Under the pieces are notes generated by a model. That model was given only the letters and a program-made list of their open reading frames with translations, was not told where the DNA came from and ran no database searches. This document shows positions 12,701-59,615 of a stretch of 64,000 bases of DNA, one piece after another. Every line of letters starts with the position of its first letter. The stretch's first letter is position 1. Source of the DNA: Pecten maximus (lineage: Eukaryota); the NCBI RefSeq assembly GCF_902652985.1, contig NC_047028.1, positions 25,544,001 to 25,608,000 on the forward strand, in the 5' to 3' direction. Made by a program: the position numbers and the translations under genes.

Positions 12701-15700
12701 GCTTCTATTCTACATGTCCGAGCCTTTGCCTCGTTGCATCACTGAATAAGCTTATTATTAATTATTCACTATTTACAATACATCGGTAATTAACATGTTA
12801 ATGTAAATATTACCTCGTATACCCCTTTGTCTTTGACGTCACCAGCTTCAGACCTTTTTTGGTCAATGCCACTGAAGAGTTCCGTACACACCATGGGTAC
12901 AATGCCTTTGTTGGATTGGTATCCGACCATGGAATACGTCTTTCCACTTCCGGTTTGGCCGTACGCAAACAGGGAACAATTGTAGCCCTTCCACGCATTC
13001 TCCAGCACGCCTCTTCCCAGATCGTCAAATACACGTTTCTAGAGAGAGACACGAAAATCTTACATCAAGTGTCCTATTCCCTACTAGCAGTACAATATTC
13101 GTTTTATAAGCAACATACTGTCAATGAGATTTGATATTCCAGTGTTTACTTGCCCTGCCGTAAGGAAATTATAGCCATAGTCACCGCCATCTTTAGGCAA
13201 AAAACAAAAATACAAGTTAAAAATATAATAATCCTCTGAAATGAATCTCGAGATTGCAAGGCCGTTCAATTTGTTGACTTTGAACTTGCCTGGCGCTCCT
13301 CTGCAACCGATTGGTAATTTTTCCTCTTACACTAATCTTTGGGCATTACATATGAATGAATATCCTTGTTACCTGACCCTTTTTTCCGTTTCCGTTGGAC
13401 TACAATATAGGACAATAGGACAGTGTAGTCCAACGGAAACGGAAATAAGGCTCAGGGAACCAGACGAATGAATAAAAGGGTGTAGCGAGAGAAAGGGGAC
13501 GTAACTCATGGAGTATCGAGATACATATAAAGTCATTATACAGTACCTGATCGGCATATTTCGTTCCTGTTGGTTCCATGTATCCGTCCGGACGCGTGTT
13601 AAATTCATCATGTGACCAATACGAGTAGTCGAAATGAAACTTCTTGGGCTCCGCGCTCATTTCCTCGGGGTTGGTGATCTCCGTAGTTTTCCCCGCCATC
13701 TTGATGACAAGAGTGGCATTTCTCTCCTTCTCTCTGTCATTGTGGGTATTGTCAAGGACAAATTTATCCACCTACTGAATTATCAACCTATAAACATATC
13801 TAGATATGGCGCTTGTGATTTTCACAAAAAAATGTGTTTTCCCGCAATTCCATCAAACATATAAAAAGTATCAGGGTTGTCAAGCAATGATGATTTCTAA
13901 GATCAAATATAATTGTTATTATATTTCAAAAAGGATTGTCGAGCAAAAAAAGGTATTTATATAGACGGGGTTTGTTATATATAGGTATTTATATAGACGG
14001 GGTTTGTTATATACAGGTTTTTATATAGATGGGGTTTGTTATATACAGGAATTTATATAGACGGGGTTTGTTATATACAGGTATTTATATAGACGGGGTT
14101 TGTTATATACAGGTATTTATATAGATATGGTTTGTTATATACCGGTATTTATATAGACGGGGTTTGTTATATACAGGTTTTTATATAGACGGGGTTTGTT
14201 ATATACAGGTATTTATATAGATATGGTTTGTTATATACCGGTATTTATATAGACGGGGTTTGTTATATACAGGTTTTTATATAGACGGGGTTTATTATAT
14301 ACAGGTATTTATATAGACGTGGTTTGTTATATACAGGTGTTTATATAGACGGGGTTGGTTATATACAGGTATTTATATAGACGGGGTTTGTTATATACAG
14401 GTATTAATATAGACGGGGTTTGTTGTATACAAGTATTTATATAGACGTGGTTTGTTATATACAGGTGTTTATATAGACGGGGTTTGTTATATACAGATAT
14501 TTATATAGACGGGGTTTGTTATATACAGGTATTTATATAGATTGGATTTATTATATACAGGTATTTATATAGAACGGGTTTATTATATACAGGTATTTAT
14601 ATAGGCGGGGTTTATTATATACAGGTATTTGTATAGACGGGGTTCGTTTTATACAGGTATTTATATAGACGGAGCTTGTTTATACAGGTGTTTATATAGA
14701 CAGGGTTTGTTATATACAGGTATTTATATAGACGGGGTTTGTTATATACAGGTATTTATATAGACGGGGTTTGTTATATACAGATATTTATATAGACGGG
14801 GTTTGTTATATACAGGTATTTGTATAGACGTGGTTTGTTATATACAGGTTTTTATATAGACGGGTTTGTTATATACAGGTATTTATATAGACGTGGTTTG
14901 TAATATACAGGTATATATGTAGACGGGGTTTGTTATATACAGGTATTTATATAGACGGGGTTTGTTATATACAGGTATTTATATAGACGGGGTTTGTTAT
15001 ATACAGGTATTTATATAGACGGGTTTGTTATATACAGGTATTTATATAGACAGGGTTTGTTATATACAGGTATTTGTATAGACGTTTTTTTTTATAAACA
15101 TGTATTTATATAGACGGGGTTTGTTTTACACAGGTATTTATATAGACGGGGTTTGTTATATACAGGTATTTATATAGACGGGGTTTATTATATACAGGTA
15201 TTTATATAGACGGGGTTTGTTATATACAGGTGTTTATATAGACGGGGTTTGTTATATACAGGTACAGTATATATATACACGGGGTTTGTTATATACGGGT
15301 ATTTATATAGACGGGGTTTGTTTTATACAGGTATTTATATAGACGGGGTTTGTTATATACAGGTATTTATATAGACGGGGTTTGTTATATACAGGTATTT
15401 ATATAGATATGGTTTGTTATATACAGGTATTTATATAGACGGGGTTTATTATATACAGGTATTTATATAGACGGGGTTTGTTATATACAGGTATTTATAT
15501 AGACGGGGTTTGTTATAAACAGGTATTTATATAGAACGGGTTTATTATATACAGGTTTTTATATAGACGGGGTTTGTTATATACAGATATTTATATAGAC
15601 GGGGTTTATTATATACAGGTATTTATATAGACGGGGTTTGTTTTATACAGATATTTATATAGACGGGGTTTGTTATATACAGGTTTTTGTATAGATATGG

Positions 15701-18700
15701 TTTGTTATATACCGGTATTTATATAGACGGGGTTTGTTATATACAGGTTTTTATATAGACGGGGTTTGTTATATACAGGTATTCAAATAGACGGGGTTTA
15801 TTATATACAAGTATTTATATAGATATGGTTTATTATATACAGGTATTTATATAGACGTGGTTTTTTATATACAGGTGTTTATATAGACGGGGTTGGTTAT
15901 ATACAGGTATTTATATAGACGGGGTTTGTTATATACAGGTATTTATATAGACGGGGTTTGTTATATACAGATATTTATATAGACGGGGTTTGTTATATAC
16001 AGGTATTTGTATAGACGTGGTTTGTTATATACAGGTTTTTATATAGACGGGGTTTATTATATACAGGTATTTATATAGACGGGGTTTGTTATATACAGGT
16101 ATTTATATAGACGGGGTTTGTTATAAACAGGTATTTATATAGAACGGGTTTATTATATACAGGTTTTTATATAGACGGGGTTTGTTATATACAGATATTT
16201 ATATAGACGGGGTTTATTATATACAGGTATTTATATAGACGGGGTTTGTTTTATACAGATATTTATATAGACGGGGTTTGTTATATACAGGTTTTTGTAT
16301 AGATATGGTTTGTTATATACCGGTATTTATATAGACGGGGTTTGTTATATACAGGTTTTTATATAGACGGGGTTTGTTATATACAGGTATTCAAATAGAC
16401 GGGGTTTATTATATACAAGTATTTAACTAGATATGGTTTATTATATACAGGTATTTATATAGACGTGGTTTGTTATATACAGGTGTTTATATAGACGGGG
16501 TTTGTTATATACAGGTATTTATATAGACGGGGTTTGTTATATACAGGTATTTATATAGACGGGGTTTGTTATATACAGATATTTATATACACGGGGTTTG
16601 TTATATACAGGTATTTGTATAGACGTGGTTTGTTATATACAGGTTTTTATATAGACGGGTTTGTTATATACAGGTATTTATATAGACGTGGTTTGTAATA
16701 TACAGGTATATATATAGACGGGGTTTGTTATATACAGGTATTTATATAGACGGGGTTTGTTATATACAGGTATTTATATAGACGGGTTTGTTATATACAG
16801 GTATTTATATAGACAGGGTTTGTTATATACAGGTATTTGTATAGACGTTTTTTTTTTATAAACATATATTTATATAGACGGGGTTTGTTTTACACAGGTA
16901 TTTATATAGACGGGGTTTGTTATATACAGGTATTTATATAGACGGGGTTTATTATATACAGGTATTTATATAGACGGGGTTTGTTATATACAGGTGTTTA
17001 TATAGACGGGGTTTGTTATATACAGGTACAGTATATATATACACGGGGTTTGTTATATACAGGTATTTATATAGACGGGGTTTGTTTTACACAGGTATTT
17101 ATATAGACGGGGTTTGTTATATACAGGTATTTATATAGACGGGGTTTGTTATATACAGGTATTTATATAGATATGGTTTGTTATATACAGGTATTTATAT
17201 AGACGGGGTTTATTATATACAGGTATTTATATAGACGGGGTTTGTTATATACAGGTATTTATATAGACGGGGTTTGTTATAAACAGGTATTTATATAGAA
17301 CGGGTTTATTATATACAGGTTTTTATATAGACGGGGTTTGTTATATACAGATATTTATATAGACGGGGTTTATTATATACAGGTATTTATATAGACGGGG
17401 TTTGTTATATACAGATATTTATATAGACGGGTTTGTTATATACAGGTATTCATATAGACGGGGTTTGTTATATACAGGTATTTATATAGACGGGGTTTGT
17501 TATATACAGGTATTTTATAGACGGGGTTTGTTGTATACAGGTATTTATATAGGCGGGGTTTATTATATACAGGTATTTATATAGACGGGGTTTGTTATAT
17601 ACAGGAATTTATATAGACGGGGTTTGTTATATACAGATATTTATATAGACGGGGTTTGTTATATACAGGTATTTATATAGACGGGGTTTATTATATACAA
17701 GTGATCATTTTATGCAGTGTTTTGATGATATACATATGCTTATTATAGACAGAATTTTGTTATATTAATGCAATCCTTATAGCCAGGCTGTCTTTATAGA
17801 CAGGGTTTTGTTCCACATAGTAACTAAGGGGCAGGTTCGACTGTCAATATATCAATGTGGACACGATAATAAAACGTATACGAAACAGTGAAAATTTCCT
17901 TTACAATTTTAGATACAATGTATGTATACATAACAATACCTGTTACGTACGTCTATTGTAATATCTAAACCTGACCTTATTTATCAAGTTAGAACTGCTT
18001 TAGGATACCGTGCGACATGAACAGTGACATCATATTGACAATGTGGGGCTGTAGTGGCCTACTTATCTAAGATAGAGTCAATATTTGGCTGTCGTTGGTA
18101 GTTACGCCAGTCGTGACAATGACAAAAGTGAATTTTCGTGGAACTTCAATACAGTGTACCATGGCCTATTGTTGACTATGACTTGTAAATAAAGGTGGGA
18201 TATGGAAAGTTTTCGAATGGTTTATTTGGTTTATTTTGTTTAACGTCCTATCAACAGCCACGGTCATTTAAGGACGTGCCAGGTTTTAAAGGTGGAGGAA
18301 AGCCGGAGTACCCGCAGAAAAACGTGTGGGTTTGAACTCGCGACCCAGAGGTGGAGGGCTTGTAATACAGTGTCGAGACACCTTAACCACTCAGCCACCC
18401 CCCACCCCCACCCCCCAGTTTACAACACCGGTATGTTTATTGATCCTATTTATCGATCGGGGTTGTCAATGCAATGTTAAGGGATTTAAACTATTCCCCT
18501 ACTGCTATTTAACTTTGAAGTTATTAATCACAATTTAAGGTTATTACTTTTAAATGACTATATGGTAACACTTGGTATAATTGATCCGCGTTACATAAAT
18601 GTGCAGTTAAATCAGTAATATCGAGTCACACGAAAATTGCGCTGTCAATTAAATTCGGTATAAGCTTTTAAATGCATTTGAGTTTTTCACGCTCATGTAC

Positions 18701-20469: not shown

Positions 20470-21678
20470 CGAGGGATAATTGATATGTTGTGAGCCTCGT
20501 ATTGAAGGAGGTACTCAAGGTTGTTCTTTTTAAGTCCTACTATTCTCTGACTATATAGGGCCGTGTGCCCAAGGACTGGTCTCATTTCGTTGATTTATAT
20601 CGACGAAGTGGCACACTATGTACAGTAAACAAGACAAGCTGCTTTTGCAAAATGTACAAAATTGGTGAAAGAGCAGTGATCCAATATTTGCATGAAAAGG
20701 TTTAACACCCGAGGATATCCATAATGACATAGTAGTAATACTAGGGAAAGATGCCCCTTTATATGCTACAGAGAAAAGGTGGGTGGCGGAATTTAAGCGC
20801 GGCTGACAGAGCCTTGAAGATGAACCCTTCCTGGCCTGTCAATGTTGCAACTCCAGATGTGGTCAATAAAATTCATGATATTCTTTTGACTGACAGACGA
20901 GTTAGAGAAAGATATATAGCCAGTATAATTGGTAATTCTCAGGAAGGAGTACATTCCATTCTGACCAAGGATCTTGCAATGAAAAAGCTTTCGGCTCGAC
21001 TGGTTCCAAGACTTCTGACAGTTGATCAGAAGCACACCAGGTGCAAATTATCGCGTGCTAATCTTAACCTTTTTGAGGAAGATCCTGCCAGCTGTCTTCA
21101 GAGATTTGTCACTATGGATGAAACTTGAATTTTACCCCAGAGGCCAAACAACAATCGAAATAATAGAAGCACCCTGGCTCTCACCCGCAAAAGATGGTAA
21201 AGACTGTTCCATCAGCAGGGAAGGTTATGGCTTTGGTTTTCTGAGAAGCAGATGGTATTCTGCTGATAGCTTACCTCTAAAAGGGACAAAAATCAACGGC
21301 ACATACTATGCTTCACTTCTGAGGCAGCTACGGGAAAATATTAAACTTAAGCGCTGCGGAAAGCTCACTAAAGTTGTGTTATTCTATCAGGACAATGCCC
21401 CTGTTCACAAGTTTGTCATTGCCATAGCTGTGGCTTTAAATTGATTGAACATCCGCCTTATTCAGGCATCCACTTTCAGTCCGATGATGACGTCATACAT
21501 ACAGTGGTTGACTTTCAGAACAGCCAAGAAAAGGAGTTCTGTAAAAGTTGCATCGAGGCCCTGAAAACTGTTGGCAAAAGTGTATAGACACTGAAAGGGA
21601 TTATGTTGAAAAATAATACAATATATCCGGCAAAATTCAAGTCCTTCAATATGAGGCGGCTCACAACATCAGTTCTCA
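20470..21678 (+). mobile_element. Mariner (Tc1/mariner) DNA transposon with a decayed transposase
   Basis: TA-flanked degenerate TIRs (cgagggataattgatatgttgtgagcctcgtattgaagga / tccttcaatatgaggcggctcacaacatcagttctca). Transposase fragments run from about 20652 across several frames: HTH region, LVPRLLT (WVPRLL motif), FVTMDET, QDNAPVH and HPPYS, with frameshifts, stops and loss of the PDLAPSD segment. Confidence 0.9.
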
Positions 21679-23234: not shown

Positions 23235-25260
23235 TTAAAGACTAAGATTTATTGCTTTCAATATTTGAGATTCCATACCTAACAAATCAGAATACTCCGA
23301 CACAGTCAATATGTTTTCTTCCAAAGGCTCGGATGCAGTCATATTTAAAATTGCATACCCGTCATCAGATGGCGCTTTGCCAACCGTGACAATATGAATG
23401 CCATCAGATTTTACTGCAGTCACAGTCTCTTGCAAGTTTGATGTGAACATGTCGTCCGGATAAAACATTATGAGGATCACGTCCTGCACTTCCGGTCGAT
23501 CACCAATGGAACCGTTATAGATCTTTCCATGTATTTTATTAAGAGCCCTTTTTATTTTGTTTCCGGTAATGGTGGAAAAGCTTATTTCTTCAAGTGCTTC
23601 AATCTGCGCTGAGCTGTTGAGGAATGCGTCCAGTCGAAATTTAATGCTAGTGACACCACCGAAAACTGCGGCAGCTAATCTGACGTCATGGAGTTGACCA
23701 ACGAGGTGCTGAACGTAACTTATCATAGCATGGAAATCCGTTTCGTTGGTATTCTTTGAAAAGTCCAATAACACCGTCAAGTCAACAGATCTCACTTTAG
23801 AATAGAAAATATTGAAACATTATTAATTCCTAGACATCATAAATACAATGTAGATTTTGACTAAATAAGACAAGTATCTCAATAATAACAATTTTCTAGA
23901 ATACATTTTTTTTTATTATATAGCCAATTAACCTTTGCATAATCGGAGGTTAAAATAATGGTATGCATGCGTTCCTGATTAATTACATCATAATGTTGTT
24001 GACTATAATGTTTTTTTTTATATAACTGTATACATATACATGGTCAGCCATGCAATAAAGCCACTGTAAACATACTTTTATTGTATGGGATGAACCAGTA
24101 TTCACCCTTAGGTATGAGAAAATTTCTGTTTTATTTTGAGAATCATCTAAATATACTTCATTACACACATACCATTCGGTTTTCTTAAACATTGTGCTTA
24201 AATGCACACCGGTCGAGATAAAACAGTATCAGCGAGTATCAAGTTGGATGAAAAATAAAAAATATGTCGTCATAGAGAAATTAAAATTAATCTCTATACT
24301 GATATTGGTTTCGTTTAATAGCATTCGCCACTTAAAGCCAGTATAAATATGATTTGTTTTAGCAGCATGGAACAAAATAGTACTTACATTCCGTGATACA
24401 AGTATGATTCCCGCTCCACAGCACAACGCATGTTTCGGTCTTGGAGCATAGGCGAGATCTACAAGGTCCTAGGCTTTCCTAGAATTATAAATAAACATTC
24501 CTTCTGCTTAATGTATTCAATGTTTTATATATGTATTTGATGACAATATCGAAATATTTCATATAAATGAAAAAAAAAAAAATCAACTTGTATCTTAATG
24601 ACAGTTTTGAATTTGATATCTTAGATACGTACGATTGGGTTGCTTTACAAAAAATGTCAATATTTGAAAAATACATTTACTAAGTTTTGAAGACGCCGGT
24701 TCCTTTGTTTTTTTGTGTTACTCATTTGTGAGTTGTTTCAGCCTAGACTTAAGCACTTAAAACGTCCCTCTTTATTTTCTGAAGGAAATATGTTCTAATT
24801 TTTTTTTTTTGGAAACAACGACCAATTTTTCAACTTTATTGTCGGATTTCCAATGCGTACGTAGACGAAAACTGCCTGAATGTTAAGATGTCATCAGCTT
24901 TATATTCAGGTTTCACTTATGAAAACTTACCGGAAGTGTTTGGTTCCAGTCAGGTTCGAAATAAACATCAGCTCTGTCCCCGGTAAATAATTTGTTGTCA
25001 TTTAACTTTCCAAGGGAACAGCTCAGGGTTTCCCTGTTGTATCCAACGCTTTTACATTTAGACCTCTCCATACAGGCCCTCTGACAGGCGGCCAGTCCTG
25101 TGGTGGTCACTGTCTTGAACACTCCTTTTGATATATGATGCTCCAAAAAACTTTCGCCCTCTAATCGTCCGTTATTACAGACCGATAATGCATATCCTAT
25201 CAACACTGATAGTAAGAAAGACATTTTGTATATCTGCTTTGTTTGACTCCAAATCCCCAT
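23235..25260 (-). CDS. Secreted PAN/Apple + short Cys-rich module + von Willebrand factor A domain protein, about 326 aa
   Basis: Three GT-AG, phase-compatible exons totalling 981 nt. 24931-25260: signal peptide and PAN motif CQRACMERSKCKSVGYNRETLSCSL. 24388-24478: GPCRSRLCSKTETCVVLWSGNHTC. 23235-23794: VWA (DLTVLLDFS...FRLDAF...GDRPEVQDVILIM...GIHIVTVG..ASEP). Confidence 0.82.
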
Positions 25261-26496
25261 GTTTCCTTTGAGAGCCTTAATATTAAATCAAGAACTGAAA
25301 ACAGTTTTGGTAGTCAAGTAGTGACAATGCGTTACCATGGTAACCGTAAGAATAGCGACTCGGTCGCGGGACGCTCATTTTCAGCATGATTAAGGGAATC
25401 GAAGGGAGACAGAGATTCTAATAGAAAGTTCCGTTGCAAGAACAGAATGTCATGGAAAACAATATGCCATTGGTCAAATAGCCGTCCTTTTTCACTTGTT
25501 ATACAGTATGATGCAGAGATATCGCTATCCGTTATGAGGAGCAGCACATGTATCCCGAGTTTAATATGATAAATCTAATGCAGAGACCAGTATCAACCAA
25601 TGCCGTCCAGGTAATTGATTTTCTGTAAGCTTCCCCATACAGGGCTATTATTGCTAAACCAAACCAAACTCAATTAACCCATATAAAATAGACCACACCC
25701 AGGGAATATCTCTAGATTTCTCTGAAAAACAAATTGATTTTCTTTTGACCGTTATTTAATTTTTATTTTGTTGGCTTTTACTTTCGGTTATTTCAAGTGA
25801 AATTAGATCATTGAACTCGGTAAACCATTTGACCGTACCTGAGAAAAATGAATGAAATTTCTACGTGTAAATTTACCATAAATTGTCTAATGGTCACATA
25901 TTCAATATAAGTTTTCCCCCCTGATGCCTCCATTGAAAATAACACTTTAAAACTCGATATGACTACTCCCGTTCATCGACTGTGTATTCCAATGTAAACA
26001 TTGATAACTTAGTTATTAAAAGACCCATTTTACGCGATATGAAAATCAGACGATCTTATTTAAACATACATTTACATCTTGTTGATTATTATACTTGAAA
26101 TATCACGCCGTAAAACATTATCCGGATATTTTTATATGGGTTTTGCGTTGCTTGGACGACATAACATATACACGAACAAACATATCTCCAATTTGGTGAC
26201 GAATGCCTCAATCCAAGATACCTACATCTGAAATATTACACCACATATTAGCATGGCCAATCTTTGTATCCTCATATTTCTTTTATCTGATTTGATTATT
26301 GATCTCTCGATTTCCTGCTTTTTGTCGGAGTTATACTCTAACAAAGCTGAAACTTGGAAACTATATTGTGCTACTTTTGTTTTAAGTTAAGAATGAAGAT
26401 ATGTATATTAAGATTGACGTATTATTCGTATAACATTTAACATTGATTCAGTTTGATTTTTAATTCCCTGACTGTCAGACTGGACTGCTATACTAT

Positions 26497-27174
26497 TGTA
26501 ACGGGAATGGATTTTGTGAGTTATGTACCTTTGTTTGAGAGTTGTGTCCCTTAGTAGAAGTATATATTTGTGTATGTATGATAGTATTTTGTTGGATTAT
26601 AGTTAATTTATTAATTGTGAGTGTGAATATATGTGTTCAGAATGTAGAATATATGTAGTATGATAGTATGTATATAGTTTGAGAATGTGTGCGGGTAACT
26701 ATGATTGTGTATTTTATATTGAAAACATTGTATGCTAATTTATGTGCACCATTGTGAATGGAAACGGATGCTAGTTTATATGTGTGAATGTAACGAGTAT
26801 ATGTGGGAAGTTGTATGAAGATATAGAAGCCATTGGCTGGTACTTCATTGTTGCAAGTTGGTAAGTTTACTTCCCTTCTATCCTTTCCTTTCTCTACTTT
26901 TCCTACACTTAACAGAAGCCATTGGCTGGTTACTCTATTTCAGTCTTTCTGTCTATGTATTGGGTAATAGCTGCCTCGTGTATGATAGTGTGGAAGATCG
27001 TTTTAATCTGTGATGATGTAAATAGTTATTGTTACTAGCTGTTTTATATTGCCAATGATAGTGTTGAATAAATGTAGGACTTATATCTAGTTGTTGTGTG
27101 GTTTATACATTCAAAGTACGGTACTATTAAGTATAATTAAGAACCTGGGTTGTAGGGGAATTTGAACCGTTACA
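26497..27174 (+). repeat. 5' LTR, 678 bp
   Basis: TG...CA termini; direct repeat of 28768-29444; AATAAA near 27068. Confidence 0.95.
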
Positions 27175-27242
27175 GAATTGGTGCCGTGAGCAACTTTTTA
27201 GTCATCCATACTTTGAATGCATATTTGTGTGTGATCATTACT

Positions 27243-28158
27243 ATGGAGGCATTGTTGAAGTCCTTTAGTATCAGTCCTACATTGTCTGTGGTATACAGTA
27301 CTGCTTCATCAGTTCAGTCGTGTAGTGTAGTGAACTCGACCAGTTGTTGTTTGTCCACTCCACCTATAGTTTGTCAGCCAGTTAGTTGTAAAGTCACGGT
27401 CAGCCCTAGTTGTAGCATTGCTAAGACTGAGTTTCATAAGACTAATGTTGATATGGGTATCCAGACAAAGAATCATTTTGTACATAGGAAGCATAAGGAG
27501 CCTTTGCCTTTTGATGGGTCGTTAGATATTGATGACTTCCTTGTGCATTTTGGTCAGGTCAGTGTCTGGAATAGTTGGAATACTAGGGAGATGGCTATAC
27601 AGTTAGCAGTTTCACTCGAGGGTAAAGCTAGACAGATACTCCATGGTCTAGACTCTCGTCAGCTGGAGGATTTTGACATTATTGTTGATTTGCTAAGGGC
27701 ACGATTTGAACCTGAAGGTCTTGAATGGACTTTTCGTTCATGTTTCAAGAACAGACGGTATCTAGAGTCTGAAAGTTTAGCAGAATATTGGGCCAGTCTA
27801 CAGATACTTGCTAAGAAGGCATTTCCAAAGTCTGTGAAGAGTGAGAGGGAAGTTTATGTTATCTCACAGTTCATAGCTGGTATACCCGATTTTGAGCTCA
27901 GGAAACATGTTTGTTTGAACAATCCCAAGACATTATCTGAGGCTGTCGTTCTGGGTTATCGTTATGAGTCTTTCTTGCAAATGTTTGGTGTTGAGTCACA
28001 GAATGATAGATTGACCACTCTTACTTTAGGAAATATCAAGGCCATTCTTGATAGGATTGGAACAAACGGTCAGGACAAGGTTCAAAGGTCATCGTCTTTG
28101 CTACTGTTGTCGTCGGAAAGGACATAGAGCTAGTGAATGTCCATATAAGGCTTTATGA
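27243..28158 (+). CDS. Retrotransposon Gag (capsid plus CCHC zinc knuckle; the knuckle is in the +1 frame)
   Basis: ATG at 27243, ORF to the stop at 28127, with the gypsy-type capsid signature FDGS..FLVHF..WN.W...LAVSLEGKA...RF...Y.ESESLAEY...L..LAKKAFP...QFIAGI...PKTLSEAV. CYCCRRKGHRASEC (CX2CX4HX4C) lies at 28099-28140 in the +1 frame, ending at TGA 28156-28158. Confidence 0.85.
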
Positions 28159-28767
28159 TTGGTGTAGTGGTTTTGAATATGTTTTGTTATATACGGAAGG
28201 TGAACAAATACATGTGTATACAACATATCCTCCTGTGTTTTATGGTAGAATTTTAAGTGGTCGAGGTGTAAAGGTTTCTTGCTGAATTCTGGTTACCAGG
28301 TAACTGTGTTTGCTGATATCTGTGTGGTTATTGCAAAATTTTGGCCATGTCTGTGCCTGGTGTATTCTTTGTGAGTACTGGCTGTGTTCTTAGTGGACAC
28401 GAGTTCTATGTGAGCTGGACACTGCATGGGCTGTAGTTGAATGGCGAAGATACCTGTACCAGTCTGACGGATCAGAGACGGGAGTTACGGGGAAGCAAGT
28501 ACCACGTATGGAAGGAGGCCTTGGATCGTCGACCGCGCTTCATGGACGAGTCGCGTTCGCGGAATGTGTGTCGCGGGACTTCGCGATTCGCGTGAGGATC
28601 TGTGGACCTCTCCTGGGATATTTGGGACATTTACTGTGATATGTATAATTGTGCTGTGATATAATTGTTTTTAATATTTAACATATTTGTTATTTTTCCA
28701 GTGTGTTTTGAGACAAAATGTTATTATTAGAAAATAACATTTGTCTATTTTTCAGAGGAGGGAGGAA

Positions 28768-29444
28768 TGTAACGGGAATGGATTTTGTGAGTTATGTACC
28801 TTTGTTTGAGAGTTGTGTCCCTTAGTAGAAGTATATATTTGTGTATGTATGATAGCATTTTGTTGGATTATAGTTGATTTATTAATTGTGAGTGTGAATA
28901 TATGTGTTCAGAATGTAGAATATATGTAGTATGAGAGTATGTATATAGTTTGAGAATGTGTGCGGGTAACTATGATTGTGTATTTTATATTGAAAACATT
29001 GTATGCTAATTTATGTGCACCATTGTGAATGGAAACGGATGCTAGTTTATATGTGTGAATGTAACGAGTATATGTGGGAAGTTGTATGAAGATATAGAAG
29101 CCATTGGCTGGTACTTCATTGTTGCAAGTTGGTAGTTTTCTTCCCTTCTATTCTTTCCTTTCTCTACTTTTCCTACACTTAACAGAAGCCATTGGCTGGT
29201 TACTCTATTTCAGTCTTTCTGTCTATGTTTTGGGTAATAGCTGCTTCGTGTATGATAGTGTGGAAGATCGTTTTATTCTGTGATGATGTAAATAGTTATT
29301 GTTACTAGTTGTTTTATATTGCCAATGATAGTGTTGAATAAATGTAGGACTTATATCTAGTTGTTGTGTGGTTTATACATTCAAAGTACGGTACTATTAA
29401 ATATAATTAAGAACCTGGGTTATAGCGGAATTCGAACTGTTACA
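28768..29444 (+). repeat. 3' LTR, 677 bp
   Basis: Preceded by the PPT and followed by the TSD CTAT. Confidence 0.95.
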
Positions 29445-31661
29445 CTATAGATCCCTAACATCACTGACGGGTTCTAGGTGCAAAATGGTGTAGTTTTATA
29501 TATGCATAAATTGGCATGATAGCAAAGTCTTATTTCTATGAGGAAGCAATTCTAGTTTGCGATTCATTTATCATGACTTTTCCTTCTCTCTTGTTATCCT
29601 CCATCTGGCAACGCCTACCATTCCACTGTTGACGGGAGCACTTGTGTGTGCCATGTATCATTTCGGGGTGATGAGGTAGTCGACCAAAGGGAGGAAGCGA
29701 TACTGAAATTACTTGCACTTCCATGAAATCAACACTAATTTGTTGAGTTATGGAGCGTAAAGGGAACTTCAAGCAAGCCAAGGATTAAGTAAATATGTAT
29801 TTTTTTAAAGCAATAATAATAGTTTTGTACTTGTATAGCAATTCTTTTATTTGGTAATGTTGCAATTTCAAATACTTAATATATTCATCAATATTTAGGC
29901 CTTGCGTATGGTGAAACTAAACTAACACTTTATCACCATTAAATGTATAATAGCATGTTGAAAGCAAAGGAAACACATTTCTCAAAGTATACTTATTACA
30001 ACTGCTAAAAATCTTTTTGGATGAAAAAAAAATATTCCCAGAATAAAATTATCATTGGGAATCAATTTTCTAGGACGAAACTATCCCAAACTTTACAAAA
30101 ACAAACAATAAAAAAGCACACCAACTTATTCTAGTACTGACATAATCCCCGCGGTAACAACGTATCCTCAACTTGGGAAAGAAAAACGTATTTCCGGGAC
30201 TGTGATTTAAGAACCAGTACTAAAATATCACTGGCCAACAAAACATATTTTTGTTATCCTTTTTTCCCATTTCTCCGTTATAGCCATAAAAACAACCAAC
30301 GGATTTCTATATTATATGAAATATATGGAAATGGGATCATCCAATTATTTTGTAGATTTAAAAATATGTTAATGGAATGTGAAGTACGACGACGCAGGAA
30401 AGGAAGGATTGTTTCTACGTGTCATCGTACATGTCTCGAGACTAACCGAAGTGCAAGTCACGTGAATCTCCCCGTGATCTAGGAACAGCTGTCCAGGTCT
30501 GGAAAGAGTGAAAGGGACTGCTTAATATCATATAATAGTGAAACCATTAGACTCCTATAGGAATCGTGCGCTAAAGATAACCATTTAATTAAAACAAACA
30601 TATCATATCATAGTAAAACCATTAGACTCCTATAGGAGACGTGCGCTAAAGATAAACACTTACTTAAAATACCAAACAATCATATTTGCAATAACAGTTG
30701 TTTTAGGTACATGACGATTGTGGCGTATTTTCGAAATTTTTGACCATAAATAACTGCCTGTTATACGATGCTACAAGGTAACCATATGCATCAACTAGTT
30801 ATTTTTTTCGATACAAATACATAAAAATACATAAAAAATAAACTCAAAATAGCTTTTTTTCATATTAGGTCAAACAACCTCTGACAAGTGATCGAATGTT
30901 CTTGTGGTTTGCATTGTACGAATCAGAACAATGGGTTGACAGCTTAGTTTTACGACCTTCTTATGTTCAACATACGTATCCCTTATGGAATAGTAATGTA
31001 TGTAGATATTGCATTTATTGTCTTCAACTATTTAAAGTATGCTGGAAGCCATGTAGAGAGCTTATATAGACAAAGCCTGTTGTTAAATCCCTTTGTTTTA
31101 TCAATAAAATATACATGAAAAAATGGAATTCATGTGTTAATTCCGAATCGAAGACTGGTTTATTTTAAATATCTTACATCATGTGTATATTGTCCATTAC
31201 AAAATTGTTTCATAAAACCAACCGTCCTCTTTACAACGGTGCGTCAGTGGTATCAAAAACCGCAATCATGATGTTAGCAAATACCAATTATATTCAAATG
31301 TGTTGAAAGTATTGATTTTGTAACGTTGACGAAATCAGTCGTTCCAAAGTCTTGAGGATTTATATTGAAACCGTGTATTAAAACGACTAACTAAGATACT
31401 CTAATGTGATAAAGCTACCATTCTGACTTTTAGGTAAACAGCGCAGCTGAGTTAGAAAAACAAGCAAGGGAATACACATTTAAAAAAAATTAGGATCATT
31501 AACCCAAATTCAATTAAACGAGACAAATTTTTAATCAATAAAATCCTCTCCTGATTTGTTGTCATAATAATGCTTTCTGGGCCTTTTAAACTTTTTTTCT
31601 TTGGAGAACAAATACGAAACGAGTGGGACTATGTAATGGCAATACGAAAAAGAGGTATGCT

Positions 31662-32069
31662 TCAATGTACCACTTTAACTCCAGAAGAGACGTGGGATAT
31701 TTCAGATGGAAAACAAGAGTCGTTATACGTACCGCGTTTCCCGCCGATTTCTATCCTGTTGAAGTAAAATATAAAGTCTGAAATATTTTTGTTGTTTATT
31801 GCACAGAGCTGGTCACTGTAGCTGGTACATATGCCTGTTTGTTTGTTGTAGGAGAACGAGGAGCACCCCCGACACAACTTGGCACATTGGAGGGATGACT
31901 TTATCCCCGACACGCTTGATAATATTCCATCACGGTAAAGACTCTCGGTGACCCTGTCTTGGGACGAGAAGAGCGACGTTATCACACCTGGCGGATCGAA
32001 ACACGTCGTTCGAGGTAAACACATAAATACTTCGATAACAATAACCACCACCAGTTCAAATCGTCTCAT
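31662..32069 (-). CDS. Secreted PAN/Apple-domain protein (first coding exon, or a short single-exon ORF)
   Basis: ATG 32069 gives a hydrophobic leader MRRFELVVVIVIEVFMCL, followed by the PAN motif SSLQCAKLCRGCSSFSYNKQTGICTSYS. A possible donor G|GTACGT lies at 31733/31732. Downstream exons were not resolved. Confidence 0.6.
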   Translation of the reverse strand: MRRFELVVVIVIEVFMCLPRTTCFDPPGVITSLFSSQDRVTESLYRDGILSSVSGIKSSLQCAKLCRGCSSFSYNKQTGICTSYSDQLCAINNKNISDFIFYFNRIEIGGKRGTYNDSCFPSEISHVSSGVKVVH

Positions 32070-33133
32070 TCTGACGTTGCACACAATCACGAACTTTGAC
32101 TTTGTTATTTTACCGTGAGTGAAACATGAAAATATGACTAACAACTCTACCAAAGTATTTTCATGTCCATGAAACATAAAAAGATGACTGTCAACTCTAC
32201 CAAAGTATTTCTATGTCCATTACAGAGAAGAAATTGACAAAGTAGCGATAGAGTTTATTTTTGAGAATGCAAAAATACCGGAAATAATGCAAATTCTACA
32301 CATGCGCAAATATAGAGTTGATCTTGCGAAAACTTTCTATAACTGAATCTATCCAATACTTGTCCCGTTTGCCAATATATTCCTAAGCCTTTGATGAAAT
32401 TCTCATTACACATGAAGTTACGAAAGGCTTCATTTATTCGCAACCCTTCAAAGCTCACTTGAAGTTATCGTTGCTACTAAAATCGAGTTATATAGCGATA
32501 CCTAATCACACATAAAAACGACAATTATAACGGTAACAAAGTGTATGGTACTGGACTTATTAGCCGATGATTTATGGCAGTTTTATATCCTTGATTGTAA
32601 AATGATTTCAAACAAGCATTCACCTTAATGGGGCCAGGCTGCTTCAAGTACAAGTCGTCTGTGAAGCAAAATCTATATTCTGCAGAGGTCAGAAATCGCC
32701 CCGTTGATATCTTAGATCGATTTTAGTTAACCAGTTGGTATCATTTCGTGCCTCTGATGATGTCTACCGATTTTAAGTACTTGCAAAATGGCGGTGCTCA
32801 ATTTAATGTCTTTTTGGGCGATTTAACAATTAGTAATCATTTGATTGATTGGAAGATTTAGATTTAGTGCAGACTATTTGCATTTTAATGGATTGACGAG
32901 AAGGATCAAACGAAAAAGTGCACGAAAAATATTAAAAAAAATTCAATACGAATTAACTATTTTTACATCTTTGTTATCAAACCCGCCTTAAACATGAAAG
33001 TGTTTTAAATTCAGTTCCATTCTCTCACGAATATTGTAAAGGATGTTTTTGATTGGTTCTATTTCCCTTTCTTTTTCATACCCCCCCCCCCCCCCCCCCC
33101 CGAAAAAAATGTAAAAAGTTAAATTAAAACAAT

Positions 33134-39637: not shown

Positions 39638-41989
39638 CAATGGGATCTACGACATTCGCGAATAACAGATACAGTTGAGATATATGTCCAGTTTTCAGGG
39701 AAACGACTTACCAGATGACCAAATGAATTTGAAAAATCTTATATTGTTTTGTTTTCACCCTCACTGTTCTTCGCCAAATCATTGTTATCGTACCTATTAG
39801 ATTTGCCGACCGATTTCGACTTCGAGATGTAGCTTATCTTGAGATATTCCATGTAATGTTTTTTCATTACATATCATTTAGTTACATCAATAAAATAGAT
39901 TATGTTATTGTGAGAAAATATCGTAGACCGTGCGCATTTAATTTATGTTTGAAATTGAAGTTTAATTTAGATCATGACTGCTATAGGGAACCATCGAAGG
40001 AATCACCATGTAAAATTCATTTGATATGCATGTTTGTTATTGTTTGTATTTTATAGGAACGGAATCAAATATTAAATATTTATGGTATATAAATAAATTC
40101 GCGCGGCACCAAAGTCGGCAAAGCTTAGACCATCATTTTGGCTAATAGGGAATTTTCGTTGATTCAATTACGGGAGGTAAGATATTGTTAGTTTAGACAA
40201 TTATTGTTTTAACCGATCATGTTTCATTAGTTACAGACTTGCCCCGGAACATTCGTATCCAATACCGCTAGAAGACTGTATCAATGCCACCACACATTTT
40301 CTCAGATATGCCAAGGATTATGGAGCAGATCCAACGAGAATAGGGATAGGGGGTATAGTAAACAATAGTCAGATGGACACATTCTAATAAAATGCAAATT
40401 CAGATTAAACGAAAAATTAATCATAAAATAAAACACACAAAATAATTCAAACTTGTAGTACATAAATGTGCTACGTAAGAAACATTTTTGACAACAGTGA
40501 TGTTAATATAAAAAGTGGGATAACTTTTCCAGATGTTAAAGAGAAGCAGCAGTATGATACGCAAATGGAAAAAATGATGTTTGAAAAAAAAGACAAAAAA
40601 TTGATAAAGATAAATAATTCTTAAATACTCTAAAGTTCTCTTTTCATGCTCAACTGTGTTTTGTATTTAGGTGACAGCGCAGGTGGAAACCTTGCTATGG
40701 CAGTAGCATTGAAACTAGCAAAATCAAGGGAAACAACTCTTCCACCTCTACGTACTTTGTCTCTTGTGTACCCTGCACTACAGATGGTGGATTTCAATCT
40801 GTCTTCATACATCACCTACACAGACGGACCGTTCTTAATTACGAAACGTTTAATGATTTCCGCCTGGCTTATTTACGCATTCGGCCATGAAGATCCTTTT
40901 CCTGAGTTTTTCAATAACAGGCACCTGTCAGCAAAGTCGAGAAATAACATCAGACATTATCTTAATGATACATTTCCCCCGGAAAATGACAGTGAGGTAC
41001 AACTCAAAAGAGTGGTTATTTTGACGAAAGTCTAGCTAGAGATATAGAAAGTGTTGTATCTAACCAGTTTATTTCACCATTACTATCACCTGACGAAGAT
41101 TTACGGAAACTACCGAAGATGCTTTTATTTACATGCCAATATGATCCGCTTACAGACGAAGGAAGAATTCTTGTCAAACGTCTTAACAAACTTGGGATTC
41201 CCATTGTTTATAAACATTTCTCTGGCGTTCAGCACGGCTTTTTCTCTTCTAGGTTTGATGTCATGATGAAATGGAAACAGGCCTTAACCAACTATATAGA
41301 GTTTTTGGAAAATGAGCTTTAATGTAAACTGAAAACAAGATATGTTTGTATTAAATGACAATGTCCTTGACGTCATATTCTGGTTCATCGTTCATTGAGT
41401 GATTTTATAAAAAACAAAACAATGTTAATGTACCTAATCATTCATTGATCCTTTATGAAGTGGCGCGATGAAGTAATAATTCGGTGATATTTATCCCGGA
41501 CTCGCCATTTCAATAAGGCATGAATAATACTAGAAAGGTTTACCAAAACAACCTCATTATAAACAATCCGTACTTGATACGAATATTATCTAACAACACT
41601 CATTTAAACAATATTTATGCAATTTCATCAATAATCATTTGGAATAGCAATAAGACGTTCAGTCTGCCTGTTAAAACCATCGTTTTTGTTTCTTTTCATG
41701 TGACATTTTATCCTTCACGCCATGCTTCTCTCGCTTTCCTTTGCCCGATCCATATAACCGACATGTGATGGCTTTTAATATATTGAAGTAATAATTTATT
41801 TTCTTATATGATCACCCTCTTTCTTTATAGCAACATCCCTTCATCTACCAACTGCACTGCCTATATCGTGCAACTGATTATATATGGAAATGGACAACTT
41901 CACATATAGTGTCAGGAAAAGATACATAAGCATACTATGATAGAAAGATAGATAGAAAATTCGTGTTTTTTATCTTTATTTTCAAAACA

Positions 41990-46900: not shown

Positions 46901-48290
46901 ATAGGATTATAGTTCTGGCAATAACATGTTACTAAAATAAGAATATGTGTTGTCTTCCACATCTGAAAAAAACTATTTTGTTGTATTCCTACATCTATGA
47001 GAATGTGTTGATAATGTCATATGATGTGTGTTTATTAGTTTGCGGTGTTTTATCGCCTCATGAACAGACGGAATACATTTGAGGCGGGGTCTACTTGTAA
47101 CAAGTGGTGAATGCCTACCAGACCGACACACATATTCAATTATGGGAGGTGACATATTGTTGGATTAGCCACATAGGTTTGTAACCGATTATGTTTCCAT
47201 AGTTACAGACTTGCCCCGGAACACCCGTATCCAATACCGCTAGAGGACTGTATCCATGCCACGACACATTTTCTGAGATATGCCAAAGATTATGGAGCAG
47301 ACCCAACGAGAATAGGGATAGGAGGTATATTCAGGAAGGAAACCTTCTGATAAAATGAGAATTCAAATGAATACTTAACATAAAATCGATTTAAAAGAAA
47401 ACAGACAAAATCATTTAAACTTGTATTACTATGGTTTGAAACATTTGTGAAATAAGTGATGTTATTTAAAAAAGAGATGTGGTCATTCCAGATTTTAGGG
47501 AGAAGCTATAGTCTGATAAGGAATTGGAATGCATGATTGGAAAAACAATTTTTAGAAATAAATATATAGATTAAAAATGATAAAAATAAATAAAATTAAA
47601 GGTCTCCAATGTTCACTGGTGCATGTTTTGTATTTAGGTGACAGTGCAGGCGGAAACCTTGCTATGGCAGTAGCATTGAAACTAGCAAAATCAAGGGAAA
47701 CAACTCTTCCACCTCTACGTACTTTGTCACTTGTGTACCCTGCACTACAGATGGCGGATTTCAACCTACCTTCATACATCACCTACACAGACGGGCCGTT
47801 CTTACTTACGAAACGTTTAATGATTTCCGCCTGGCTTATTTACGCATTCGGCCACGAGGAACATTTTCCTTTGTTCTTCAATAACAGCCATTTGTCGCCT
47901 AAGTCAAGAAATAACATTAGACATTACCTTAATGATACATTGCTTCCGGAAAATGACAGTCAGAGACAACTTCAGGACAATGCTTATTCTGACGAAGGAT
48001 TAGCTAGAGATATAGAAAGTGTTGTATCTAACCAGTTTATTTCACCGTTACTATCACCTGACGAAGATTTACGGAAATTACCGAAGATGCTTTTATTCAC
48101 ATGCCAATATGACCCGCTTACAGACGAAGGAAGAATTCTTGTCAAACGTCTTAGCAAACTTGGGATTCCCATTGTTTATAAACATTTTACTGGCGTTCAG
48201 CACGGTTTCTTGTCTTCAAAGCTTGTGGTCACGATGAAAGGGAGACAAGCGTTTACTGACTATGTAGAGTTTTTGGAAAAGGAGCTTTAA
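43945..48290 (+). CDS. AADAC/NCEH1-like (GDXG/HSL family) carboxylesterase/lipase, paralog B, intact, 402 aa
   Basis: Exons 43945-44088, 44404-44511, 45188-45305, 45769-45832, 47203-47324, 47638-48290 (1209 nt, all GT-AG). N-terminal TM anchor, HGGGW oxyanion motif, GDSAG nucleophile, YDPL Asp and QHGF His. Confidence 0.92.
44663..44958 (+). mobile_element. MITE family copy in intron 2 of lipase B
   Basis: actgaaaatcatttcgatttcgcgaata ... gaaatataaatgattcacagta; imperfect TIRs; rich in tcgcga. Confidence 0.6.
46025..46470. repeat. 42-bp diverged minisatellite, about 10 copies, in intron 4 of lipase B
   Basis: Unit approximately ccgccatgttaaatccaggtaatgaaatgtcataaccgacac; the ccgccatgt core (or a variant) recurs at 46112, 46154 and 46196. 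Confidence 0.85.
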
Positions 48291-57500: not shown

Positions 57501-58584
57501 ACCTGGTAAAACTGGTCGCATTTATGTGTTATCTTGTATCATGATCTGGTGATATTACATAAACACAGAAACCAGGCTGATTCTTTAACTGGCGAACACC
57601 TGCATCAGTTACTGACGCAAAAAATATCTCTACTTATTACGACATATCACCTCCCATACTGAGATTCTCGGCTTATTTCGATAAAGCACCCACCCAACGC
57701 ATTTAACATTTCATTCGAACAGATTCGATTCTTTGGTCATCTCCTATGTCAAAATGTTTCCGAGGAGGACGAACCAGCTGTATGGTGCTATCCGAGGTAT
57801 TTAGGCTCTTCTGTATCTAACTCTCTTTTTGTGAATATACTTTGATATTAGCTAGGTGGTAGGTAATGAACATTTCACTCCAGGGGTTTATTTTATCTAC
57901 TTGTCACGTTTAAATTGATTTGAATACTGTCGCTATTCTGAATATACACATGTACCTTACTTAATTTTGAAATAGAATATTGAAAATTACTGAATTTATC
58001 CCAAACGGGTCTTATCCAGATTATGACATATTTGGCATTTAGCATCATTCATGAGTTACGGACGAATCTGCTTTACGGTTAAGTGCAAATCACTATTTCT
58101 CTCTTTCCTTTTGTTGTACAATTTGCTAGTACTTTGTATGACGTTTGTGCGATCCTTCGGCGGATTCTCCGGAATATTTCTACTATTACTGGCGTTAAAT
58201 TTACTGTCCGGTACGGACACACCGAAATATTTTCGCGGTTAACATAATATGTTTCAATTCAATGAAACACCTTTTTACATCAACGACACATTCAGCAGAC
58301 TTCACCATTAAATGGAGCTGGCCACGCAGAAACCTTCCAAATTAAATGACTAAAATTGATAATATGTATTACAATAGAATGTATTCCCATATGGAGTTCA
58401 TGAAACGTGATAACTGTTCACAAAACCTATTTATTAAGAAGGAATATTAAAGTTTAGAGGCATCGATATCAGAACACAGCGAACCTGCGAATATTAAAAC
58501 GTAATGGGATTCTATTCTGTACTGGTATGTCTAGTAACGAAAATTAATCTCCAGGTACAAAATAACAAGATGAATGCATATTTA

Positions 58585-59615
58585 CGTACCGGATAGCACA
58601 GGATGGTTATATATTTACGGTACAGGATAACAGAGGATGGTGACATATTAACAGTACATGCTAACAGAGGACGGTGACATATTTACAGGATAACAGAGGA
58701 TGGTGACATATTTACAGTACAGAATAACAGAGGATGGTGACATATTTACGGTACAGGATAACAGAGGATGGTGACATATTTACAGGATAACAGAGGATGG
58801 TGACATATTTACGGTACATGATAACAGAGGATGGTGACATATTCACGGTACAGTATAACAGTGGACGGTGACATATTTACGGTACAGGATAACAGAGGAT
58901 GGTGACATATTTACGGTACATGATAACAGTGGATGGTGACATATTTACGGTACATGATAACAGAGGGTAGTGACATATTTACCGTACAGGATAACAGAGG
59001 ACGGTGACATATTTACAGGATAACAGGGGATGGTGACATATTTACGGTACATGATAACAGAGGATGGTGACATATTTACGGTACATGATAACAGAGGATG
59101 GTGACATATTTACGGTACAGGATAACAGAGGATGGTGACATATTTACAGGATAACAGAGGATGGTGACATATTTACGGTACATGATAACAGTGGATGGTG
59201 ACATATTTACGGTACAGGATAACAGAGGATGGTGACATATTTACGGTACATGATAACAGAGGATGGTGACATATTTACAGTACAGGATAACAGAGGATGG
59301 TGATATATTTACGGTACATGATAACAGGGGATGGTGACATATTTACGGTACAGGATAACAGAGGATGGTGACATATTTACGGTACATGATAACAGAGGAT
59401 GGTGACATATTTACGGTACAGGATGACAGAGGACGGGGACATATTTACAGGATAACAGAGGATGGTGACATATTTACGGTACAGGATAACAGAGAATGGT
59501 GACATATTTACAGGATAACAGGGGATGGTGACATATTAACAGTACAGGATGACAGAGGATGGTGACATATTTACGGTATAGGATTACGTTGATAGTGACA
59601 TATTTACTGTACATG
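58585..59615. repeat. 34-bp minisatellite with an interspersed 29-bp variant, about 31 units
   Basis: Unit gtacaggataacagaggatggtgacatatttacg; the short variant lacks 5 nt (atttacaggataacag). Confidence 0.95.

Follow-up and report, generated by a model that had tools for sequence, protein, structure and literature searches.

The 2948-bp element at positions 26497-29444 of the window, a stretch of 64,000 nucleotides of Pecten maximus contig NC_047028.1, is best explained (with a probability of about 0.72) as a recent, gag-broken insertion of a low-copy, pol-less Ty3/Gypsy family whose gag has been kept by purifying selection and which probably depends for its copying on Pol supplied in trans, the likely source being an autonomous His-primed Gypsy family. 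The pol-less interior is a trait of the family, which is mobile and present in low copy number. The element is laid out as follows:

26497-29444: whole element, 2948 bp
26493..26496 (+): left target-site duplication (TSD), CTAT
26497..27174 (+): 5' LTR, 678 bp, TG...CA, with an 8-bp terminal inverted repeat
27179..27189 (+): primer-binding site (PBS), 11 nt complementary to the tRNA-His 3' end
27243..28127 (+): gag main frame from its first ATG, leaving the family frame near 28050
about 27489-28010 (+): two-lobed capsid domain of gag, the N-terminus of which is rich in Ser, Thr and Cys
28030..28158 (+): second frame, in which the gag of the family ends and which includes, at 28099-28140, a CCHC zinc knuckle
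28159..28734 (+): non-coding 3' tail, collinear in six copies
28735..28767 (+): block next to the polypurine tract (PPT), the tract itself at 28754-28767 (14 nt)
28768..29444 (+): 3' LTR, 677 bp
29445..29448 (+): right TSD, CTAT

The sequence bears out most of what an earlier note had described from it: LTRs of 678 and 677 bp with some 15 differences (14 substitutions and 1 indel), a CTAT TSD, a tRNA-His PBS, a PPT and an interior of 1593 bp. The substitutions comprise 9 transitions and 5 transversions (K2P 0.021). Pairing between the PBS and the 3' terminus of this genome's tRNA-His extends over 11 nt (28 pattern matches, with tRNA-His(GTG) called by ARAGORN in 2 of 3 tested loci), whereas the pairing covers 17-18 nt in most autonomous relatives. 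The stretch between gag and the PPT, which the note had taken to be free of pol, gave matches at noise level only when compared by tblastn with 103 ORFs of related autonomous loci, scored no better than shuffles against pol and ORF3 profiles, and returned nothing from Pfam in five frames; the proposed search for pol remnants in the tail thus found none. Rfam gave 0 matches on the element. Reverse transcriptase (RT), RNase H and integrase are absent from an element shorter than 4 kb with LTRs, PBS, PPT and TSD, which are among the features by which TR-GAG elements are recognised.

The element is flanked by a VWA-domain exon (window 23238-23819, - strand) and a PAN-domain exon (31665-32210, - strand), and it may sit in an intron of one opposite-strand gene with these exons on either side. 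Elsewhere in the window there are near-duplicate alpha/beta-hydrolase (Abhydrolase_3) gene exons at 40634-41032 (+) and 47562-48287 (+), a local duplication; long minisatellites at 13951-17699 and 58577-59615 (117 copies of 32 bp and about 31 of 34 bp, respectively); and a fragment at 21019-21441 (+) with a weak mariner-type Transposase_1 match (E 3e-4).

The claim that the interior holds one Gag ORF did not stand. The long frame 27156-28127 contains a capsid match to PF03732 (Retrotrans_gag; E 2e-7, above cut-off) and a weak one to PF19259 (Ty3_capsid; E 0.001), and ends without a knuckle. A frameshift near 28050 places the CCHC knuckle (PF00098; E 0.007, below cut-off) in a different frame from the capsid. 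This break, seen in the window copy alone among six copies, may be biological or an assembly error. The family layout is one gag gene. A model of the capsid stretch is all-helical and two-lobed (pLDDT 77, pTM 0.45, from a 7-row alignment); Foldseek with this model gave no match at E<=0.001, and its top PDB neighbours, PNMA2 and Arc capsids, are weak (E 0.004-0.006). Gag itself had no match at E<=0.001 among 697 and 942 candidates from protein databases, which is weak evidence and was given no weight. On the PF03732 match and its nesting among Gypsy Gags in the tree described below, the capsid is classed as Gypsy-type.

A search of the genome with the interior returned 19 matches, of which six are full-length and collinear, lie on six chromosomes (C14, C5, C2, C7, C13 and C8), have pol-less interiors of 1551-1595 bp and are 82-91% identical to the window copy over the interior. 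Searching with the gag-to-PPT junction returned the identical six loci plus fragments. Distinct TSDs (CTAT, TCAG and CATT) are found in three of the six copies, the other three having damaged ends. Divergence between the LTRs within a copy is 0, 0.008, 0.021, 0.032, 0.072 and 0.121 (125-624 aligned sites), a range that indicates repeated insertion over time, and two copies are by this measure younger than that in the window. An older copy, L163, is about 72% identical and likewise free of pol; its gag is followed by a tail of partial homology, a PPT and an LTR. Moreover, a contig of DNA run X5 joins the two flanks, skipping 2952 bases that correspond to the element plus one TSD; the site is therefore empty there and the insertion polymorphic. 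This is evidence from one contig, with 51 letters on its short side. X5 and X1 come from different studies and samples. The assembly itself may derive from X1 and possibly from X2, and neither was counted as independent. X6 and X7, of small shares, were left out, and contig depths in the runs were not taken as copy numbers. Six collinear pol-less copies on distinct chromosomes with distinct TSDs, together with the empty site, argue that the family transposes in its pol-less form, as the earlier note had proposed. Neither of the observations named there as contrary, a junction unique to this locus or pol remnants in the tail, was made. Its expectation of many dispersed pol-less copies of about 2.95 kb held for the dispersal and the distinct TSDs, but the copies are few (six).

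Most of the family survives as solo LTRs. The 20-mer at the LTR start has 56 matches in the genome against 0 for a control pattern, and about 48 LTR loci, mostly solo, are left after dropping one tandem run and paired LTRs; both counts are lower bounds. With the LTR as query there are at least 45 matches (best 40 of 128 candidates scored). Twenty-four of 30 LTR loci from this search have no interior, and 14 of these 24 carry an exact 4-bp TSD, one of the 14 belonging to a truncated LTR. Among 19 further LTR loci none has an interior or pol and five have an exact TSD. Pol inside an element was likewise found at 0 of 20 LTR loci in another set. Two rearranged loci were also seen. L276 (G000:C10:4420025-4420324), a solo LTR that keeps its 4-bp TSD, starts with six tandem repeats of the LTR's first 56 bp. 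In L170 (G000:C2, near 43401800) an unrelated sequence starting with TGTAAC precedes the PBS and leader of the element, and these pass after about 50 bp into the family's LTR end; this is a small chimeric or rearranged copy.

The comparison of copies points to gag having evolved under purifying selection among pol-less copies (p<1e-4). As all six copies are pol-less in layout, the divergence among them post-dates the loss of pol. Over 299 gag codons from these six copies only, the proposed measurement of Gag dN/dS gave values below 1, with omega 0.46 under GY (p 1e-7 vs omega 1), 0.54 under MGK (p 2e-5) and 0.44 with the oldest copy left out (p 8e-6). Shifted gag frames gave omega above 1, and in the three tail frames omega was not different from 1 (p 0.09, 0.25 and 0.59), with no hidden coding signal. 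Within gag, 0-fold sites changed less often than 4-fold sites (120/534 vs 46/109; p 0.0006). After a rough correction for neutral decay following insertion, omega on the transposing lineage would be 0.3-0.4. Sites common to several copies fall at third positions in 17 of 38 cases (p 0.10), too few to carry weight alone, and the sole gag indel common to copies preserves the frame.

It is unlikely that gag is instead a relic carried by an element that moves on its cis signals only, TRIM/LARD-like, in helper particles, with omega reflecting bias or an earlier period. The 4-fold C/G sites are very variable, such that mutational bias may inflate dS; against this, gag 0-fold sites have also changed less often than sites in the non-coding tail (120/534 vs 144/485; p 0.026), and indel blocks are depleted in gag (14 in 913 nt vs 26 in 609 nt of tail; p 0.001). 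Gag is broken by a stop or frameshift in 6/6 copies, including the C5 copy, in which the LTR pair is without any substitution; transposition may therefore tolerate a broken gag. However, every break is private and none is common to two copies. Some of the breaks may be assembly errors, since young autonomous copies in this genome often have split frames. Amino-acid changes show no significant avoidance of clade-conserved columns (17/218 vs 83/773; p 0.25), yet over a stem of 1.49 changes per site the family has retained 31 of the 37 capsid columns that are conserved in the clade. TRIMs with identical PPT and LTR start are present in the genome. Taken together, these data favour selection on gag in the pol-less lineage.

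The Gag was placed in a tree of 69 rows, comprising 63 pol-bearing loci and six family copies. The gag-only family is one clade (100/100) on the stem just mentioned, and lies within a 59-row clade (100/100) in which His PBSs occur. The sister group is weakly supported (85/49), and because the branches are long the exact place of the family is unsure. The closest pol-bearing Gags are 35-44% identical (best 150 of 559 candidates scored). The His-primed relatives have the Gypsy pol order PR-RT-RH-IN and no recognised env, and unbroken pol frames with near-identical LTRs are found in L110, L112, L114, L123 and L124. Compared with the gag-only element, the His-primed autonomous families (L110, L114, L118, L123 and L268) share the His PBS, the 4-bp TSD, a similar PPT and a homologous Gag capsid (35-44%), but have pol and a C2H2-finger ORF3, unrelated LTRs, and Gags of about 460-700 aa against about 300.

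An autonomous element with the same LTR ends and His PBS, for which a search had been suggested, was not found. None of 66 autonomous loci has an LTR similar to that of the element, and the LTR search described above brought up no autonomous partner among the candidates scored. A pattern of LTR end plus His PBS hit 29 sites, of which 20 were inspected without revealing an autonomous partner; one of PPT plus LTR start gave at least 49 matches, no excess over the control, and the 20 loci inspected were all TRIMs or unrelated, with no autonomous partner. L178 and L181, where the element's LTR lies near others' pol or ORF3, were considered as partners and rejected as nested insertions with no PPT or matching TSD.

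The DNA match to autonomous loci is limited to 36 nt at the PPT. This block is identical at 33 of 36 positions to the L268/L272 family, at the same position, against 24 or fewer in 28 other loci, and its 24-nt core occurs at nine sites genome-wide, five in the gag-only family and four in or derived from the L268/L272 family. The PBS of L268/L272 is likewise 11 nt long, but the Gag there is no more than about 36% identical, the LTR ends are different, pol is split in 4/4 copies examined and the LTR pairs are older (about 95%). Shorter PPT motifs occur in L112 and L131, so conservation rather than recent exchange may explain the shared block. We regard the L268/L272 family as a candidate donor or helper; L110, L114, L123 and L124, with unbroken pol and near-identical LTRs, are alternative candidate helpers.

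These searches bear on a second and less probable alternative, a hidden parent: an autonomous element with the same LTR and gag, outside the assembly, that supplies Pol and matching Gag and of which the short form is a deletion derivative. The assembly is one sample and the searches scored the best candidates only, young deletions from autonomous families do occur in this genome, and an equivalent possibility has been raised for zebrafish Bik-1 (PMC12067270). However, we found no pol-bearing locus with the element's LTR or PBS junction, and the identical pol-less layout recurs in copies up to 18%, probably 28%, diverged. Such a layout across diverged copies implies selection on the short form itself, unless the parent kept overwriting gag.

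Several other loci of the same clade are of interest in themselves. L122, L218 and L221 (G000 C18, C3969 and C16) are young pol-deleted derivatives with LTR pairs 99.6-99.9% identical; L122 and L218 keep gag, protease and ORF3 with two different breakpoints, and L221 keeps gag and ORF3 with TSD AAAG. L139 (G000:C10:7730000-7739900) is a head-to-tail array of 2010-bp units, >99.8% identical, each of which lacks gag and pol and is made up of an LTR, a His PBS and the 3' part of the L146 family. Independent losses of pol such as these, in sister families, show the way in which elements of this type originate. After pol, the His-primed autonomous families also have a third ORF in the sense direction, which is about 200-290 aa long and bears two zinc fingers of C2H2-like type (L110:8948-9544; L114:8999-9595; L118:8712-9380; L124:8807-9679; and related loci). 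It is kept across many diverged families and also in some pol-deleted copies. We found no literature on this ORF in His-primed Gypsy families, and it is possibly more interesting than the gag-only element itself.

Priming from a tRNA and a PPT and the making of a 4-bp TSD need RT, RNase H and integrase; these enzymes must therefore come in trans. The normal route of Pol into the particles of Gypsy elements is as a Gag-Pol fusion. Returning to the reading of a selected gag served in trans, the Pol that does the copying is likely to belong to an autonomous, His-primed Gypsy family in this genome. Transcription would begin in the 5' LTR of source copies whose gag is unbroken, their compact Gag would capture the RNA of the element and form particles jointly with helper Gag and Gag-Pol, and helper RT would prime on tRNA-His and the PPT before helper integrase inserts the DNA. 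We propose that the selection on gag stems from a cis advantage in RNA packaging. The lineage probably goes back to an old internal deletion that removed pol and ORF3 from a member of the clade. More tentatively, it could be a long-lived satellite that lost pol early, evolved a compact and strongly diverged capsid selected on its own account, obtains Pol through mixed capsids from Gypsy families with Gags less than 45% identical, and took its plus-strand priming block from one of these families.

It is very improbable that gag is retained because it serves the host, or because it restrains related Gypsy elements in a dominant-negative way, and not for the element's own packaging. Host use of Gag from gag-only families has a precedent in zebrafish (PMC12067270), and the weak fold neighbours PNMA2 and Arc point the same way, but host selection would preserve one locus, whereas gag is broken at 6/6 loci and the insertion in the window is polymorphic. 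A one-off deletion of pol after insertion at the window locus, of the kind seen singly in L122, L218 and L221, is refuted by the presence of the same interior and junctions at five other loci.

Lastly, we compared the element with known systems. MaLR elements have a single gag-like ORF. Like ours they are short non-autonomous LTR elements with a gag-like interior, but they are ERV-L related, of very high copy number and ancient; their non-autonomous status in mammals is described in PMC4724089. Plant TR-GAG elements are <4 kb, with LTRs, PBS, PPT, TSD and one gag ORF (Chaparro et al. 2015, PMC4350172). Shared features are a PF03732 plus knuckle Gag, no enzymes, multiple copies with solo LTRs and a Gypsy-related Gag as in TR-GAG4; in contrast, TR-GAGs have a 5-bp TSD and a plant host (here 4 bp and an animal), and are transcribed (PMC4350172), whereas the element is known from DNA alone with gag broken in all copies. 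Given its animal host, the element is TR-GAG-like and not a member of the plant families. Another account of the plant architecture includes domain-carrying families without a traceable autonomous partner (PMC13570524).

Presenting the architecture as new to an animal genome, as the earlier note did, does not hold, since zebrafish Bik-1/Bik-2 (BHIKHARI; gag, no pol, polymorphic; Chang et al. 2025) and chicken ENS-1, a non-autonomous Gag carrier, are already described (PMC12067270). These too are animal, non-autonomous and present as few full copies and many solo LTRs, but are endogenous retroviruses with an intact, expressed Gag and a host role (PMC12067270), whereas the element is a Ty3/Gypsy derivative known from DNA alone with no intact copy in the assembly. 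Its Gag shows no retroviral (ERV) ancestry, the nearest pol-bearing relatives being Gypsy elements without recognised env. Bivalve TRIMs such as Helenus, and His-primed Gypsy families, have been named (Kojima 2024, PMC10886601); such TRIMs are likewise non-autonomous and Gypsy-dependent with a 4-bp TSD, and some are His-primed, but they have no coding sequence and tRNA-derived LTRs (PMC10886601). The TRIM/Helenus traits (no coding sequence, tiny interior, tRNA-like LTR) are not those of the element. TRIM-sized loci do occur in the genome (L233-L245), with LTRs of about 130 bp around an interior of about 90-106 bp, a PPT the same as or similar to that of the element and a TGTAACGG start; they are probably published Helenus-type families.

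The available text of a mollusc survey (PMC6238403) has no occurrence of "non-autonomous", and that of PMC3286476, PMC4724089 and PMC9659126 no gag-only Gypsy case. In the literature outside Repbase, most subscription journals and supplements, we found no published account of a gag-only Gypsy family in a mollusc or of this element's family; an existing repeat-library entry for it is possible.

In summary, this is a real new family of an already described architecture, gag-only animal LTR families having preceded it. What is unusual is direct sequence evidence of gag selection after pol loss in an invertebrate Gypsy lineage; the word "purifying" is absent from the main text of PMC4350172, which calls for data on gag retention by non-autonomous elements. 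Moreover, candidate helper families occur in a single genome together with TRIMs and with younger derivatives that arose by deletion. If the satellite reading were true, the family would test, in nature, how much divergence between capsids is compatible with co-assembly. The element does not represent a new kind; it makes a neat case study, and it bears on why gag is retained without pol.
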